37,864 bases of DNA from a virus. The notes under the pieces were generated by a model. It did no database searches. It saw only the letters and a list, made by a program, of their open reading frames with translations, and was not told the DNA's origin. Positions 3,007-21,514 of the stretch are shown piece by piece (the first letter of the stretch is position 1; the number at the start of each line of letters is the position of its first letter). The DNA lies in the IMG/VR virus record IMGVR_UViG_3300045221_000018, one strand, 5' to 3'. Made by a program: the position numbers and the translations under genes.

Positions 3007-3321
3007 ATGAATCTAAAAACAATTGGAGAAATTATTTTATTTCTCTGGAATACAGGCATATTAACGGCAGTTGCATACGCAGCTAGTCGTTTTTTTATTG
3101 CCCACACAAAGAATAAGAACTTGTTGTTGCTAGAACAGTGGGCGTTGCAAGCCACTCAATACGCAGAAATGCACATACAAGGGTCAGATAAAAAGAAGCA
3201 AGTGGCTTTAAATTTTCTAGCTGATCGTTTAAATGCAAATAAATTAGGTTTGAAGTTTGATGCTAAGCAACTTGATACAGCTATTGAACTGGCAGTTAAG
3301 CAATTGAAAGGAAGCAAATAA
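3007..3321 (+). CDS. holin (LL-H-type, N-terminal TM)
   Basis: 104 aa. N-terminal TM segment IILFLWNTGILTAVAYAA and a charged C-terminus. Directly abuts the endolysin start (taATG). Confidence 0.65.
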   Translation: MNLKTIGEIILFLWNTGILTAVAYAASRFFIAHTKNKNLLLLEQWALQATQYAEMHIQGSDKKKQVALNFLADRLNANKLGLKFDAKQLDTAIELAVKQLKGSK

Positions 3322-4217
3322 TGGTTAAAAACATTAATGGCGACATCTATTCAGATTTGATTACAAGCTATGACAAGCGAGCAATGGCAGCGGGTTATTT
3401 TACACGAAAGCCAATTGATAGAATTTTAATTCATCACAATGCCACAACCAACAAAGATGTTGCGATTAACACTTGGTTGGCTACTGGTGCAGCACAAACA
3501 TCAGCCCACTATGAAATTGCCGACAATGAAATTATCGGGACGGTTGGTGAGCAAACTGCCGCATGGCATGCTGGTAACGCTGATATGAATGCACGTTCTA
3601 TCGGTATCGAACACAAGAATGCCACTGGGGGGCCAACGTGGACGATTTCAGAAGCAACATATATTAGTTCAGCTAAGTTAATTGCCGACATTGCCAAGCG
3701 CTATGGTTTCTATCCAGATAGCACACACGTTATTCCACATAAACATGTGGTTGCCACAGCTTGCCCAGGTGGCATTGATATGAACAAATTAATTACCATG
3801 GCACAAAAGGTATACAATGGCGGTAAGATAACCATTCACTCAAAAGTGGCTGTCAAACCAGATCAAAGCAAAGTAGATCAAGTACTTAACCCGGGCGAGT
3901 TCTTTAAAGCTAAGCCAGCTTATCGTGTTGACGCTATGAAAGAAGTTAATGGCATCTGGCAAGTTGTCAACTTCTCACTAGCAGGTGGCAAAGATATTGA
4001 CTGGACACTTAACGGATTAGGTGTTGAATCAGTTGATAAGGTGGATAAGGCTGGAAAGAAAACAGCCAACCAAACATTAGCAGTTGGTGACTACTTCCGT
4101 TTGCATTCAGATAGAATAAAAGTTATTGATAGTGATGATGCTACTAATGCTGTTTCGTTTAGTACCCGATATGGTGATGTATGGGTATCAGCAGATACAT
4201 TAACAGAAGTTAAATAA
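3321..4217 (+). CDS. endolysin: N-acetylmuramoyl-L-alanine amidase (Amidase_2/PGRP type) with C-terminal cell-wall-binding region
   Basis: Motifs ILIHHNAT, SAHYEI, AWHAGN, SIGIEH and PHKHV..CPG are typical of zinc amidase_2. Gene follows the holin. Confidence 0.85.
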   Translation: MVKNINGDIYSDLITSYDKRAMAAGYFTRKPIDRILIHHNATTNKDVAINTWLATGAAQTSAHYEIADNEIIGTVGEQTAAWHAGNADMNARSIGIEHKNATGGPTWTISEATYISSAKLIADIAKRYGFYPDSTHVIPHKHVVATACPGGIDMNKLITMAQKVYNGGKITIHSKVAVKPDQSKVDQVLNPGEFFKAKPAYRVDAMKEVNGIWQVVNFSLAGGKDIDWTLNGLGVESVDKVDKAGKKTANQTLAVGDYFRLHSDRIKVIDSDDATNAVSFSTRYGDVWVSADTLTEVK

Positions 4218-6599: not shown

Positions 6600-6679
6600 A
6601 GGTACTTTCAGTAATATGTGTTATGTAACCTTTGATTGGTATACGTAGATCACGTTAAAATTTATAGGAGTAGTTCGAT

Positions 6680-7345
6680 ATGAAGTATTGGAAATATTAT
6701 GTGGGCACAATTGTGGTTTTGTTGTTAGTTGTGGGTGGTGTTATGACGGTAAATCACCACAATAAACAAAGTAAGTCAGCTGAATCGCATGTGGTGGTTA
6801 AAAAACACGATAGCAAACCTAAAAAAGTGAAAGCAAAGAGTAGTAGCAAAAAAGAAAAAGCAAAATCTTCTGATGAGGTAAGTTCATCAACAATCAGTTC
6901 TAGTGAAACATTGTCATCTCAACCACAAGTAAGTTCTTCTGTGGTAACCGATGACACAACTGATTCTGGTTTTGCTGAAGGTCAACCAACGTCAAATCCT
7001 ACATTAACAGCGTTTTTGAACAAATATGGTGTAACACCTGCACAGTGGTTGGTGCAAAATAAAGGTATGTCATTTGAAGATGCACTATATGCAACACCTG
7101 ATGAACAGGAAATGTCTGGTGAATTACAGAGTGAGTGGGCATATAAGCAAGGCACTCACGATCAAATGGTTGATGATAGTGATAATTATCAATCAGAAGA
7201 CTCAACCGATGTAATATGGGAAGACAATGCTGATTTTTACGGTACTGATGGGACACATTACCACAACGATGATCAAGGACACACTTATGACGATGATGGT
7301 AATGTTATTGGTAAAGGTAGTAATACAGTAGGAATGGGAGAGTAG
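6680..7345 (+). CDS. membrane-anchored Ser-rich, acidic protein of unknown function
   Basis: 221 aa. N-terminal TM segment YYVGTIVVLLLVVGGVM, a Lys/Ser-rich linker and an acidic C-terminal region. SD TAGGAG lies upstream. Confidence 0.6.
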   Translation: MKYWKYYVGTIVVLLLVVGGVMTVNHHNKQSKSAESHVVVKKHDSKPKKVKAKSSSKKEKAKSSDEVSSSTISSSETLSSQPQVSSSVVTDDTTDSGFAEGQPTSNPTLTAFLNKYGVTPAQWLVQNKGMSFEDALYATPDEQEMSGELQSEWAYKQGTHDQMVDDSDNYQSEDSTDVIWEDNADFYGTDGTHYHNDDQGHTYDDDGNVIGKGSNTVGMGE

Positions 7346-18800: not shown

Positions 18801-19165
18801 TGACGTTTGATGAAGTGGTTGAAATTATTTGGGGCAACATATTGGGCATAGATGCATCTGATGAACCAGGTAAGAAAGATTTTATTATTAAAGACGATAT
18901 GGTTGCTACTGGTCGTGAAGGTTTGACTTTTTTAATTATGGAATTAAAAGACACTTATGCACCAACTATTGAGATGACGCATTACGAAAAGCAAGTATTT
19001 GACAGCTGGTTAAAGGAAGATGATTTTGATACACCTTTTTCTGGTTTCCTACACCATCTAGGTGAATTAGGTGGATATGAAGATAGAGGATTATTCTTAG
19101 ATTTATCAGAAAAAGATTTAATGCAAGCGTGGTTGCATCCAGAAACGATTAAAGTAGTTGACTAA
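18800..19165 (+). CDS. hypothetical protein (about 121 aa)
   Basis: Track ORF 18794..19165. ATG 18800 is coupled to the upstream stop. Confidence 0.55.
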   Translation: MTFDEVVEIIWGNILGIDASDEPGKKDFIIKDDMVATGREGLTFLIMELKDTYAPTIEMTHYEKQVFDSWLKEDDFDTPFSGFLHHLGELGGYEDRGLFLDLSEKDLMQAWLHPETIKVVD

Positions 19166-19181
19166 AAGGGAGATTAGATTA

Positions 19182-19877
19182 ATGAGTTATTTAAAGTGGT
19201 TAGGAACAGAATTAAAGAGTATTAATACAGCTGGTGGTGTGATGTTGGCATTTATTGTCGGCGTACAATTAGCATTCTACTTGTCAGCACCGATTACAGG
19301 GCTATCAACGATTACACTGGTGGCAACTTTGGTTGGTTCAGCATGTACTGTTTATATGTCACTTGGAAAGCCAATTAATGGACTGCTAGGACTAATCAGT
19401 GCGATTGGGTTCATCTACATTAATTGGACCGCAGGACACTATGCGAGTGTGTTAGATCAATTAGTATTTATTGCATTGATTGACCTGCCGTTAATCTTCA
19501 CGTGGAAAACGTGGGGACACAAAGTTGAAAATGGTGTGAAGTTCTTAACTAAAACAGGTTGGCTATTAACAATTGCTTTCATCTTAATCGCTTGGTACCC
19601 GATGATGTTGGCTTATCAAACATTAGGCGATACTAATCCACTTTGGGACAGCATCGTGTTGATTATTGGAGCAATGGCTAGTTTGTATGTATTCAAAGGT
19701 TACGGCGATAGCTACACACTTTGGTTGGCATCTGATGCCGTTAATATTCTGCTATGGGTATCAGCGCTATTTGCAGGATATTCAGCAAGTTCACTGCCAA
19801 TGCTACTAACTATGAGCTTCTACCTTGCAACAGCCTTATATGGTCGTTTCTGGAGCATTTGGCGAGGTAATAAGTAA
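19182..19877 (+). CDS. pnuC: PnuC-like nicotinamide riboside/NMN transporter
   Basis: About 231 aa and multi-TM. NPLWDS...NILLWV...YGRFWSIW resembles the conserved PnuC segments PFWDS...NWLLWV...GxxxW. ATG 19182 has an upstream SD. Confidence 0.6.
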   Translation: MSYLKWLGTELKSINTAGGVMLAFIVGVQLAFYLSAPITGLSTITLVATLVGSACTVYMSLGKPINGLLGLISAIGFIYINWTAGHYASVLDQLVFIALIDLPLIFTWKTWGHKVENGVKFLTKTGWLLTIAFILIAWYPMMLAYQTLGDTNPLWDSIVLIIGAMASLYVFKGYGDSYTLWLASDAVNILLWVSALFAGYSASSLPMLLTMSFYLATALYGRFWSIWRGNK

Positions 19878-20166: not shown

Positions 20167-20607
20167 ATGGCAGATAAATTGGATAAGCTATTGAGTGATT
20201 ACTTCACAGGTGTTTTAGATGCCAACATTAAATTACGTAGAGCAGAATTGAAATATTTTAGTAAGCATGTACCAGATGAAAATATCGGTGGCGGACGTAA
20301 ACAGAATGATTATAGTAATCCAATTGAGTTGTCTATGATCCGTGAAGAAGATGATGACGAGTTGAGCGCTTGGATTTGGCAAAAGGAAATCATTGATATG
20401 TGGTATGAATTAACAGTTGAACCGCAACGAACAATATTGTCTGAACGTTATGGTCGTAAGAAAAGCTGGTTAGCAATTTCATTGATTGTACATGCTGATG
20501 AGCGTACATGTAGGGAATGGCGAGATAGATTCAAGCAGGGAGTAGGAGTTTGGTTAAGTGATACACCTGAGAGGGTGCACCGTTTTAATTCCATTAACCA
20601 CCCGTAA
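20167..20607 (+). CDS. late-gene transcriptional activator (RinA/ArpU type)
   Basis: 146 aa. It is the last early-region gene before the HNH and terminase genes. C-terminal HTH-like segment SWLAISLIVHADERTCREWRDRF. Confidence 0.5.
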   Translation: MADKLDKLLSDYFTGVLDANIKLRRAELKYFSKHVPDENIGGGRKQNDYSNPIELSMIREEDDDELSAWIWQKEIIDMWYELTVEPQRTILSERYGRKKSWLAISLIVHADERTCREWRDRFKQGVGVWLSDTPERVHRFNSINHP

Positions 20608-20610
20608 CGA

Positions 20611-20630
20611 CTGATATATCAGCCTATAAT
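20611..20630 (+). promoter_or_regulatory. palindrome CTGATATATCAG followed by TATAAT (-10-like, no good -35): candidate activator-dependent late promoter
   Basis: Perfect 12-bp palindrome at 20611..20622. TATAAT at 20625..20630. Confidence 0.35.
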
Positions 20631-20724
20631 AGGTATTGTGGAAAGTTGGTTAGTTAGTCACACAGTCGTAAATTGACGCTTTGCTTAATATGCTAAAACA
20701 ACAACAACTAACCAATGATTCATA

Positions 20725-20836
20725 GCAAGCGTGGCGGAATAGGTAAACGCTAGTCACAAGTAAAAGCAGTACATTAGCTGAGGCGTGTACGTGACGATAC
20801 GTAAGTAATGTTAGGTGCGAATCCTAACCGCTTGTA
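20725..20836 (+). tRNA. class II (Leu-like) tRNA-like element with a non-canonical, expanded anticodon arm
   Basis: Acceptor gcaagcg/cgcttgt. U8. D-arm GGCGGAATAGGTAAACGC is nearly identical to bacterial tRNA-Leu D-arms. Variable arm is tac-GTAA-gta. T-arm is ttagg-TGCGAAT-cctaa. No 7-nt anticodon loop is present. Confidence 0.45.
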
Positions 20837-21089
20837 TAGTAAGTTAATGTAAATGTACGTAATAGGCAACACCGAGTATGTCCGTCATGAGGACGCCTTA
20901 ACTAGCTAGGCATTACATACTTACGAAAGTCCACGGTAACTCGTGGCATACCACAAACGAAAGTATGAAGGTGACTGTCTTGCACAACATTATGGCAGGA
21001 CAGAATACTAGTTATCACTTTAATTATTAGTTGTGGATAAACGATAGAAACTAACATAGTTATCAGTGCAGGGCACGTTACTATCGTTG

Positions 21090-21153
21090 GCAATAGCAGG
21101 TGGTCTTATTTCTTAATTGGAATTATGCAAGGTTCGAATCCTTGGCTATTGCG
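21090..21153 (+). ncRNA. tRNA-like acceptor/T-arm minihelix (64 nt, no D-arm)
   Basis: gcaatagc (21090..21097) pairs with gctattgc (21145..21152). Canonical T-arm caagg-TTCGAAT-ccttg at 21128..21144. Confidence 0.5.
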
Positions 21154-21162
21154 TAAGACACA

Positions 21163-21193
21163 AGGTTATCCAATCGGGTAGCCTTTTTATTTT
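21163..21193 (+). terminator. rho-independent terminator
   Basis: aggttatcc / gggtagcct stem (two G-U pairs), loop aatc, then tttttatttt. Confidence 0.75.
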
Positions 21194-21214
21194 GCACTGA
21201 AAAGGAGTAAAGAT

Positions 21215-21514
21215 ATGAACTTATACAAGATTAGCCAAGACGTGAATAATGACTGGGATACATTTGATTCCGCTGTTGTGGTTGCTAACAGCGCTGAAGA
21301 GGCTAAGAAGATTATTCCATATTTTACAAATCAAAACATTGACACTTTGTCTAATCTCCCATTTTTGGATTTGATATGTGGAGATCATAATAGCACCGAT
21401 AAGTGGGCGAAACCAGAAGATGTGAAAGTTGAATTAATTGGCGTTGCCGATAATGATTTCTTAGATAGTTTAGACGGACGAACAACGGTTGTTGCTAGTT
21501 TCAACGCAGGGTAA
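21215..21514 (+). CDS. hypothetical protein (99 aa)
   Basis: Track ORF with SD AAAGGAG upstream. Confidence 0.6.
   Translation: MNLYKISQDVNNDWDTFDSAVVVANSAEEAKKIIPYFTNQNIDTLSNLPFLDLICGDHNSTDKWAKPEDVKVELIGVADNDFLDSLDGRTTVVASFNAG

Follow-up and report, generated by a model that had tools for sequence, protein, structure and literature searches.

The complete, circularly permuted genome of a temperate siphophage of about 37.9 kb, deposited as IMG/VR virus record IMGVR_UViG_3300045221_000018 and referred to here as the window (37,864 nucleotides), contains a 607-nt gap (20608-21214) that lies between the gene for a late-gene regulator and the packaging genes and holds no plus-strand open reading frame (ORF) of 60 aa or more. 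Within this gap resides an element of 112 bases on the plus strand (20725-20836) with a leucine-tRNA-like fold that lacks the 7-nt anticodon loop. It heads a non-coding unit of about 590 nt that ends at a terminator. An initial annotation, prepared from the sequence alone, had described an acceptor stem, a D-arm, stems in place of the anticodon arm, a mini-hairpin and a T-arm, and upon reading of the sequence all of its coordinates and pairings proved correct. The parts of the element are as follows.

20725..20731, plus strand: 5' strand of the acceptor stem, GCAAGCG, pairing with 20829-20835; start of the match to the covariance model R1 introduced below
20732..20733, plus strand: U8 G9 junction (T8 G9 in the DNA), invariant in 138/138 aligned scaffolds
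20734..20750, plus strand: D-arm of the tRNA-Leu type, GCGGAATAGGTAAACGC, with a 3-bp stem GCG/CGC plus G13-A22 and the loop GAAUAGGUAAA
20751..20809, plus strand: variable insert ("cargo") of 59 nt in the constrained fold
20753-20757 with 20791-20795, plus strand: 5-bp stem (gtcac with gtgac) at the position of the anticodon stem, enclosing a 33-nt loop
20769-20773 with 20786-20790, plus strand: inner 5-bp helix (gtaca with tgtac), capping the 12-nt loop TTAGCTGAGGCG at 20774-20785
20798..20807, plus strand: mini-hairpin tac-GTAA-gta at the position of the variable arm, followed by A-U at 20808-20809
20810..20828, plus strand: T-arm with a 6-bp stem (G20810-C20828 plus ttagg/cctaa, 20811-20827) and the loop UGCGAAU, which has G at position 55
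20829..20835, plus strand: 3' strand of the acceptor stem, CGCTTGT, the complement of 20725-20731 with a G1-U72 wobble and six Watson-Crick pairs
20836, plus strand: A at the discriminator position; CCA is not encoded

The D-arm is an exact match to the 18-mer that served as D-arm search pattern and fits the family sequence GYGGAAUAGGUARACRC. The 3' half (AT-GTTAGG-TGCGAAT-CCTAAC-CGCTTGT) consists of the A-U dinucleotide and a 6-bp T-stem that is stacked straight onto the acceptor 3' strand. Positions -1 and 73 are both A, so that the closing helix measures exactly 7 bp. With its 5-bp stem at the anticodon-stem position and its mini variable arm, the copy in the window is less reduced than most of its homologues.

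These homologues were captured in a covariance model, R1, that was built from 55 sequences and excluded the window as well as its close relatives L001 and L002 (L-numbers denote individual homologous loci; L122 is phage SPP1 and L123 is phage EFDG1). R1 matched the window with 71 bits (E 2.3e-16) exactly from 20725 to 20836, covering model positions 1-111 of 111, while the next best matches in the 37.9-kb sequence reached 13 and 11 bits. Scores for other carriers were 78.8 bits for SPP1, 65.7 for phi3T, 51.5 for EFDG1 and 44-70 for Weissella prophages. The copies of the three named phages map to about 6647-6756 on the plus strand of NC_004166.2 (SPP1), about 50191-50326 on the minus strand of KY030782.1 (phi3T) and about 46493-46697 on the minus strand of NC_029009.1 (EFDG1). 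A genuine phage tRNA-Leu reached 28.5 bits and was the only true tRNA to score with the model. It is this comparative evidence and not the folding energy that is decisive. The unconstrained minimum free energy of -32.5 kcal/mol corresponds to a z-score of -1.47 versus shuffled sequences, a weak thermodynamic signal, and the fold constrained to the cloverleaf (-29.4 kcal/mol) lies 3.1 kcal/mol above it.

All members follow a common plan: an N7 acceptor strand, GUGGCGGAAUAGGUARACGC, a variable segment, (C)AUG-NNNGG-UGCAAAU-CCNNN-C and an N7' strand complementary to N7. For pair statistics, 138 distinct scaffolds were aligned with their inserts trimmed. Double-sided changes occurred in 13/16 pairs, and 99.5% of the paired cells were indeed paired, a percentage that is partly built in because extraction of the loci had required acceptor and T-stem pairing. 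The covariation score amounted to 0.758; shuffles gave 0.171, and sliding of the 3' partners gave no more than 0.154. The number of pair types per position, the exact register and the sixth T-stem pair are not built in by the extraction. This sixth pair (46-64) is G20810-C20828 in the window, where the initial annotation had noted C20828 as an extra base. It was not required in the first set and is nevertheless kept in 138/138 scaffolds (GC 129, GU 5, AU 4). All seven acceptor pairs are kept in the family, six of them with double-sided changes, and the same type of change was found at five of the six T-stem pairs. The acceptor and T-stems together form a stack of 7 + 6 = 13 bp. In loci that had been retrieved through the T-arm only, the D-stem covaries as well (10-25 is GC, AU or CG, 11-24 is CG or UA; variants GCGG..ACGC, GUGG..ACAC, CUGG..ACAG and ACGG..ACGU), and the loop is nearly invariant. 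Invariant or nearly so across the family are G7-C66, U8, G9, the D-loop GAAUAGGUARA and the A-U dinucleotide 5' of the T-stem. U8, A14, A15, G18, G19, C56 and the U just 5' of the T-stem are invariant. The T-loop reads UGCRAAU (UGCAAAU or UGCGAAU) in nearly all members, with G where tRNAs have U55. The window exhibits every family feature: the N7 acceptor closed by G7-C66, U8 G9, the D-arm, the 6-bp T-stem and the variable insert.

Members of the family are widespread. The exact D-arm 18-mer occurs in at least 118 IMG/VR stretches, and a pattern derived from the T-arm alone occurs in at least 120, which carry the same D-arm with the covarying stem variants described above. A query composed of the two scaffold halves matched 186 GenBank phage records, with hosts among Enterococcus, Lactobacillus and relatives, Listeria, Bacillus, Leuconostoc, Paenibacillus, Weissella and Brochothrix, plus one Tenericutes phage. 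Named carriers include SPP1, phi3T and other SPbeta-like phages, Enterococcus phage EFDG1 (Schiekvirus), Listeria phage B025 and many phages of lactic acid bacteria. The Synechococcus matches listed are annotated tRNA-Leu genes. Carriers among cultured phages are restricted to Bacillota (Salmonella matches were outside the examined set). Homologues surfaced only via short signature patterns: a BLAST search of GenBank phages with the entire 621-nt gap was negative, and Megablast of half of the window returned a single distant match in the capsid region of Lactococcus phage bIL309. A metagenome scan with the acceptor and D-arm of the window lineage yielded only two unrelated phages, which carry other inserts.

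Nearly all family matches in GenBank have no feature annotated underneath, and a few are overdrawn by a hypothetical ORF (the old "gene 10" of SPP1, orf80 of LP65, gp64 of B025). The 2018 re-annotation of SPP1 mentions no RNA at the element. A published description, sought also with the signature sequences as text, was not found in the full-text-searchable literature (subscription-only literature lay outside the scope), and the element is described neither in the SPP1 re-annotation nor in the 224-motif paper, the YrlA paper or phage transcriptome papers. Judged by these searches, the family is large, carried by phages of Bacillota and apparently undescribed.

Five loci (L033, L054, L070, L083 and L094) have the conserved acceptor and D-arm half followed by GCAAGGTGACTATACGAGTAA-type sequence instead of the usual T-arm. 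R1 aligns to L054, L083 and L094 over their full length of 175-185 nt with 46-51 bits, and to L033 and L070 over about 97 nt with about 29 bits. These loci may constitute a sub-family whose 3' part is larger or interrupted.

In terms of tRNA anatomy, the closest known molecule is bacterial class II tRNA-Leu (Rfam RF00005), with which the element shares the 7-bp acceptor stem, U8, G9, G18-G19, C56, A58, in the majority of members A73, and a nearly identical D-arm (GCGGAAUAGGUARACGC against GCGGAAUUGGUAGACGC). It differs in the absence of an anticodon arm and loop, in the 6-bp T-stem with the resulting 13-bp stack, in G55 and in showing no preference for G1. Of the hallmarks of a canonical tRNA (RF00005), the acceptor, the D-arm with G18-G19 and the T-arm are present, and the 5-bp anticodon stem with a 7-nt loop is missing. 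In agreement with the initial annotation, no 7-nt loop of the U33-anticodon-R37 type could be placed in the insert of the window, and ARAGORN detected no tRNA gene at the element either by default or with introns allowed. At relaxed thresholds (70-80%) the program proposed an Ala tRNA with an intron, an Arg tRNA and a "permuted tmRNA" with an implausible tag; these calls are mutually inconsistent and were dismissed as noise. Rfam 15, applied at the gathering score and at E<=10 to slices of 37.9 kb, 3.5 kb and 501 nt, gave nothing for the element. Among 33 elements from IMG/VR that were scanned with ARAGORN, a single one (L044) was called a tRNA. Since this proportion is so low and since the anticodon arm is replaced by a single-stranded linker in typical members, we conclude that the element does not decode. 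A canonical anticodon arm was sought in the homologues, where it did not emerge, and the element is conserved.

The thought that the element is a decoding tRNA with an intron, or else a decaying tRNA pseudogene, draws on its class II tRNA-like arms and on the 5-bp stem of the window, whose enlarged loop starts with AAGUAAA and recalls the CUGUAAA loop of tRNA-Tyr. The initial annotation had likewise proposed a tRNA with a short intervening sequence. This idea had to be given up: the intron mode of ARAGORN was negative, removal of the insert does not yield a canonical anticodon arm, the linker and insert geometry of the family does not allow one to be rebuilt, and most members are devoid of an anticodon stem. 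Moreover, a group I intron would not fit into inserts of 23-232 nt, no intron core is common to them, and a pseudogene is excluded by the strong purifying selection and the covariation seen across hundreds of phages. We regard both versions as hardly credible. With a probability that we put above 0.9, sequence comparison instead identifies the element as a conserved, non-decoding tRNA-like RNA of the scaffold family. The initial annotation had offered a non-decoding tRNA mimic as a second possibility, and this assignment stands as far as identity is concerned, with a core that is conserved and covaries across hundreds of phages and with a replaced anticodon region. The roles that it had attached to the mimic, i.e., a processing signal or a nuclease decoy, are dealt with further below.

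The part that is not conserved is just as characteristic of the family. The inserts have a median length of 76 nt (range 23-232), and clustering of those from 146 distinct elements gave 113 clusters, of which 97 are singletons. Most members have a single-stranded linker of about 7-13 nt after the D-stem and then one hairpin or a multi-branch domain, the closing stem of which ends two nucleotides (A-U) before the T-stem. In tRNA terms, the anticodon arm is lost in most members and the insert sits at the site of the class II variable arm. A TAAG-containing motif is enriched about 2.7-fold in the linkers (24% vs 9%) and is too patchy to serve as a defining feature. Within insert classes, stems show compensatory changes and loops remain fixed (L014/L138, L137/L154, L131/L150), which argues that the inserts are under selection. 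Between L014 and L138, for example, GAAC..GUUC is exchanged for GGCUUG..CAAGCC, and GGUGGUCGGG, GGAGGACGC and UAGGAAUGC are conserved.

Inserts and scaffolds are combined freely. One insert class was found on the acceptors UGAUGCG, UAGAUAG and UGAUGUG, and the acceptor GUGCUUG carries at least three unrelated inserts. The lineage of the window is particularly instructive, as flanks and scaffold are near-identical and the inserts differ: the window has one of 59 nt, L001, L002, L126 and L128 have an unrelated one of 47 nt, L127 and L129 one of about 190 nt, and L140 next to nothing. In the latter (IMG/VR UViG 2898938953_000003, about 188-300), the same flanks and acceptor are present and the D-loop is nearly fused to the T-arm (GCAAGCGTGACAGAATAGGTCATGTTAGGTGCAAATCCTGACCGCTTGC; R1 25.5 bits); this copy is a natural insert-less or decayed version. 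Tandem arrangements of two to four copies with inserts of different length were encountered at 10/234 loci. Mimicry of CRISPR type II-A repeats or of tracrRNA was not found in the inserts, and Rfam assigned no family to the large inserts of EFDG1 and L129.

These sequence patterns would fit a division of labour in which the tRNA core serves as a chassis and the insert as the effector, and we give this reading roughly even odds. The core would fold on its own into an L-shape through U8-A14, A15-U48, G19-C56 and G18 with G55. Its ends would probably be recognised by the host enzymes RNase P, RNase Z and CCA-adding enzyme, and CCA would be added. The product would be a compact, stable, nuclease-resistant RNA that displays a phage-specific RNA module, and phages would swap modules through recombination in the two conserved halves of the scaffold. 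The element in the window would most likely be made together with the late genes, and it is unable to read codons. Processing of this kind is consistent with several features of the ends: U is found at position -1 in 42% of the elements, A73 in 64% (93/146) and T as the base after the discriminator in 58% (84/146), CCA is not among the common trailers tallied, and in EFDG1, where the element lies in a tRNA cluster, it starts 2 nt 3' of the end of the phage tmRNA. More tentatively, Bacillota phages may carry a very abundant, so far unrecognised class of natural "tRNA scaffolds", that is anticodon-less tRNA-Leu bodies with a 7/6 helix and G55, that display well over 100 cassette-like structured modules, which could be RNA effectors such as anti-defence factors or regulators made along with the late genes.

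Several observations weigh against this reading. As stated above, the covariation statistics are partly inflated. G1 is not preferred in the family, unlike in real tRNAs. Among 83 distinct acceptors, 67% allow a pair between positions -1 and 73 (shuffles, 41 +/- 5%), with UA, AU, GC and CG all represented. This is a poor fit to a free discriminator and a fixed RNase P site. Position -2 pairs with 74 in 57% versus an expected 45%, which is unusual for tRNA precursors. The closing helix may often measure 8-9 bp, and its ends may not be those of a tRNA. Generic tRNA processing should not call for D- and T-loops as invariant as these, which hints at a scaffold-specific partner. With regard to the insert of the window, its loop 18-mer found no homologue in IMG/VR (0 matches), and a search for an antisense target within the phage gave only chance matches of up to 10 nt.

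The invariance of the loops would be readily understood if the scaffold itself were the active part and the insert merely tolerated. The element could in this case be a tRNA-Leu mimic that is bound or even charged by leucyl-tRNA synthetase (LeuRS) and either sequesters this enzyme, reports on it or donates leucine non-ribosomally. The near-identity of the D-arm to that of tRNA-Leu, the R1 score of tRNA-Leu as the sole true tRNA, the invariant bases of the tertiary core and the presence of A73 in 64% of the members including the window all agree with such a function, and the extreme conservation of the loops fits a protein that reads the elbow. Published work places the identity for bacterial LeuRS in A73 together with the tertiary core and shows that loss of the entire anticodon arm lowers the affinity only 2.5-fold (PMC2377443), which makes the idea attractive. 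However, the G18-U55 contact is reported to be critical for leucylation, and loss of A73 costs 45- to 143-fold in the A. aeolicus enzyme (PMC2377443), and nearly all members have G instead of U at position 55 while 36% have no A73. Furthermore, the 13-bp stack puts the 3' end in a shifted place with respect to the elbow, two thirds of the members show -1:73 pairing, and the compensatory stems and conserved loops of the inserts speak for selection on the very part that would merely be tolerated. We therefore deem a LeuRS mimic unlikely.

A second function for the scaffold alone would be to act as a decoy or sponge that draws off anti-phage or toxin enzymes of the host directed against the acceptor end or the elbow of tRNAs, such as nucleotidyltransferases of the MenT/AbiEii type, pyrophosphokinases acting on the CCA end or acceptor-stem nucleases. 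Real tRNAs would then be protected late in infection. The conserved parts are precisely the acceptor/T helix and the elbow, the family is phage-borne and Bacillota-restricted among cultured phages, the locus is mosaic and fast-changing, and the element is placed with late genes, the products of which often trigger abortive infection (the link to such triggers is inferred). A decoy leaves unexplained, however, why the inserts are diverse, structured and conserved within classes and why tandem copies have different inserts. Clustering of neighbouring genes brought up no consistently co-occurring defence gene or counter-defence partner, and the 3' end is uncertain given the lack of an encoded CCA and the frequent -1:73 pairing. 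In our view, this role is doubtful.

The genomic surroundings of the family fall into two settings. The first comprises the tRNA arrays of larger phages, such as that of EFDG1 and that of L005, where the element and a ROOL RNA (3293-3916, 292 bits) reside in one array. The phage tmRNA adjoining the element in EFDG1 is itself unannotated (L123 2145-2492, corresponding to about 46700-47047 on the minus strand of NC_029009.1); ARAGORN predicts the tag AKNEELLAVA* and the Rfam tmRNA model scores 140.6 bits. In the second setting, temperate or small siphophages carry the element just 3' of a regulator of late (packaging/lysis) genes and 5' of the genes for an HNH endonuclease and the small and large terminase subunits (TerS, TerL). 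The upstream regulator belongs to the ArpU family at 15 loci and to DUF722 at 12 loci. The order DUF722, element, gp64, HNH in Listeria phage B025 equals that in the window, and in SPP1 the element is located between the late genes 9 and 11. The element and the genes next to it always share one orientation. Clustering of the neighbours for a constant protein partner revealed only late regulators, HNH, terminase and similar proteins, none of which is universal. Terminator-like hairpins were found within 100 nt downstream of 19/111 elements versus upstream of 2/111.

The arrangement in the window is given below for the features outside the element.

20167..20607, plus strand: late-gene regulator, DUF722/RinA-like (Pfam DUF722, 2e-11; the NCBIfam RinA match of 25.5 bits is weak, below the cutoff)
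20837..21090, plus strand: non-coding spacer RNA between two tRNA-like elements, without a plus-strand ORF of at least 60 aa
21091..21153, plus strand: second, smaller tRNA-like element with the acceptor GCAATAG/CTATTGC and a canonical T-arm (caagg-TTCGAAT-ccttg), without a proper D-arm, directly 5' of the terminator
21162..21195, plus strand: intrinsic terminator, hairpin plus T-run, strong in the terminator scan, ending about 20 nt 5' of the first late ORF (21215) and conserved in L001 and L129

Downstream of the gap, three small ORFs precede the genes for the HNH endonuclease, TerS and TerL. According to the ORF list and a protein-family scan, the window further encodes a tail/GDSL protein, an amidase endolysin, replication proteins, a portal, a capsid protein, a tape measure protein and Dit. 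The lineage of the window is Weissella; prophages of W. fangxianensis, W. thailandensis and W. sagaensis have the identical acceptor and D-arm. A gene for a PnuC-like nicotinamide mononucleotide transporter (19158-19877; Pfam NMN_transporter, 4e-26) lies shortly 5' of the late regulator gene.

Part of the spacer, at about 20930-21090, is conserved at the sequence level in the W. sagaensis prophage L128. This module is structured, with apparent long-range pairings CCACAA...TTGTGG and AACGATAG...CTATCGTT, and the comparison with L128 shows a hairpin with wobble or compensatory differences. Rfam has no match for the module, which probably is the "large RNA" that the initial annotation referred to. 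The small element at 21091-21153 stands outside the scaffold family, as R1 reaches only 10.8 bits there, and resembles the Rfam SpF41 sRNA weakly (18 bits, E 3.3). Relatives carry other tRNA-like units at the equivalent place, among them L001 (3808-3910, 38 bits with the Rfam tRNA model) and L128, which has a tRNA body without an anticodon arm; in SPP1, a minihelix with a T-run is found there (L122, about 1618-1665).

This arrangement invites an explanation in terms of punctuation. The tRNA-like units would be cut by RNase P and RNase Z or would block exonucleases, and neighbouring RNAs would thereby be released or protected, in the window the RNA of about 255 nt between the two tRNA-like elements or the late mRNA. 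Precedents for tRNA-like cleavage signals exist in MALAT1-mascRNA and in the tRNA punctuation of mitochondrial transcripts. In the window, two tRNA-like units do flank the conserved structured RNA at 20837-21090, with the terminator next; the usual site of the family between late regulator and terminase genes, the position between genes 9 and 11 in SPP1 and the enrichment of downstream terminators point in the same direction. On the other hand, the element is followed directly by a terminator in L129 and by a protein gene in L126, so that there is no constant RNA to release, and a cleavage signal needs neither a selected, diverse insert nor invariant loops. This explanation appears improbable to us.

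The same region could also be viewed as one large non-coding RNA, about 20700-21195, of which the element is an integral domain, and the initial annotation had listed this as a possibility. The gap of about 600 nt is non-coding, contains several structured pieces and a single terminator, and part of the downstream RNA is conserved in L128; the element is probably co-transcribed with the downstream structured RNA in the window. Against this, the Weissella relatives continue differently after the element, with a protein gene in L126, a terminator in L129 and an unrelated RNA in L002, and in other phages it stands by itself, has different partners or lies within a tRNA array. ROOL, GOLLD and the other Rfam models for large RNAs found no match in the window, while in a control for the search ROOL was readily recovered in L005 with 292 bits. 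The claim of an integral domain is not supported, and we consider a single large RNA very unlikely.

With respect to transcription, no sigma-70-type promoter was evident in the gap. A block at 20620-20724 with the sequence CATAATAGGTATTGTGGAA(A/C)AGTTGGTTAG, positioned between the late-regulator gene and the element, is conserved in all Weissella relatives (L001, L002, L126-L129). It has no sigma-70 consensus and may represent a regulator-dependent late promoter. The terminator at 21162-21195 ends about 20 nt 5' of the ribosome-binding site and ATG of the ORF starting at 21215 and leaves no room for a promoter between them. The late genes would have to be expressed by read-through of the terminator, by antitermination or from a promoter that overlaps the hairpin.

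Among known RNAs other than tRNA-Leu, the nearest natural analogues are the YrlA type of bacterial Y RNAs, the tRNA-like domain of tmRNA and T4 rnaC. We turn first to the Y RNAs. These are tRNA-mimicking non-coding RNAs bound by Rsr/Ro60, some of which are phage-encoded, and M. smegmatis YrlA is cleaved by RNase P and receives CCA (Chen et al. 2014, PMC4201824). The element has in common with them that it does not decode and that D-arm, T-arm and an acceptor-like helix mimic tRNA, but the topology is reversed. The Ro-binding stem of YrlA is made by the 5' and 3' ends and lies on the anticodon side, with a closed hairpin as the "acceptor", whereas the element ends at the acceptor and is closed by the insert at the anticodon side. 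No YrlA match at E<=10 was listed for the window, and none of the 20 window proteins scanned has an Rsr/TROVE domain. A YrlA match of 14.9 bits on EFDG1 was rejected as an artefact that spans the T-arm of the tmRNA and the D-arm of the element. The tRNA-like domain of tmRNA likewise comprises a core of acceptor, T-arm and D-loop without an anticodon arm. In structures of tmRNA with SmpB, the rest of the molecule emerges where the variable arm of a class II tRNA would. The element differs from tmRNA by its full D-stem and by lacking a tag reading frame and pseudoknots, the 3-70 G-U pair is found in only 3/146 members, and the Rfam tmRNA models do not match the element. T4 rnaC and rnaD (species 1 and 2 RNAs) are also small stable phage RNAs without an assigned function that are encoded together with tRNAs, and rnaC ends in a T-arm and an acceptor-like helix. 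They were rejected as relatives, as the T4 region gave no R1 match at E<=0.01, there is no sequence similarity and the host belongs to another phylum.

The closest parallels in design come from outside phage biology. Ponchon and Dardel are said to have found in 2007 that engineered tRNA scaffolds stabilise inserted RNAs. In the vtRNA-miRNA chimeras of MHV68 and in MALAT1-mascRNA, tRNA-like units are used for processing. As in the element, each of them combines a tRNA body with another RNA, either in place of the anticodon region or joined to it, and in these systems the tRNA shape supports folding, processing and stability; the engineered scaffolds are man-made, and the MHV68 and MALAT1 units are herpesviral or eukaryotic. 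A natural counterpart from bacteria or phages with a library of inserts was found neither in Rfam nor in the searchable literature. If the chassis-plus-insert reading is correct, nature already uses the trick by which engineers stabilise foreign RNAs in tRNA scaffolds, and more than 100 structured RNA modules in a conflict-prone locus would become candidates for RNA-based anti-defence, regulation or protein binding. The family would also mark a sizeable blind spot of phage annotation, being a conserved non-coding RNA of well-studied phages and hundreds of metagenomic viral contigs that tRNA finders and Rfam have missed. Its interest lies less in the single copy of the window than in a widespread, unannotated RNA family with a cassette-like module that is present in tractable model phages, and it is testable in B. 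subtilis with SPP1 or phi3T. For tRNA biology, it bears on the conversion of tRNA genes to non-decoding roles and on the effects that a 13-bp stack and G55 have on recognition by RNase P, RNase Z, CCA-adding enzyme, LeuRS and EF-Tu.

Contigs bearing the element also contain other structured RNAs, namely a group I intron (L013, 1379-1706), a type II hammerhead ribozyme (L014, 8558-8625) and an abiF RNA motif (L049, 74-110).

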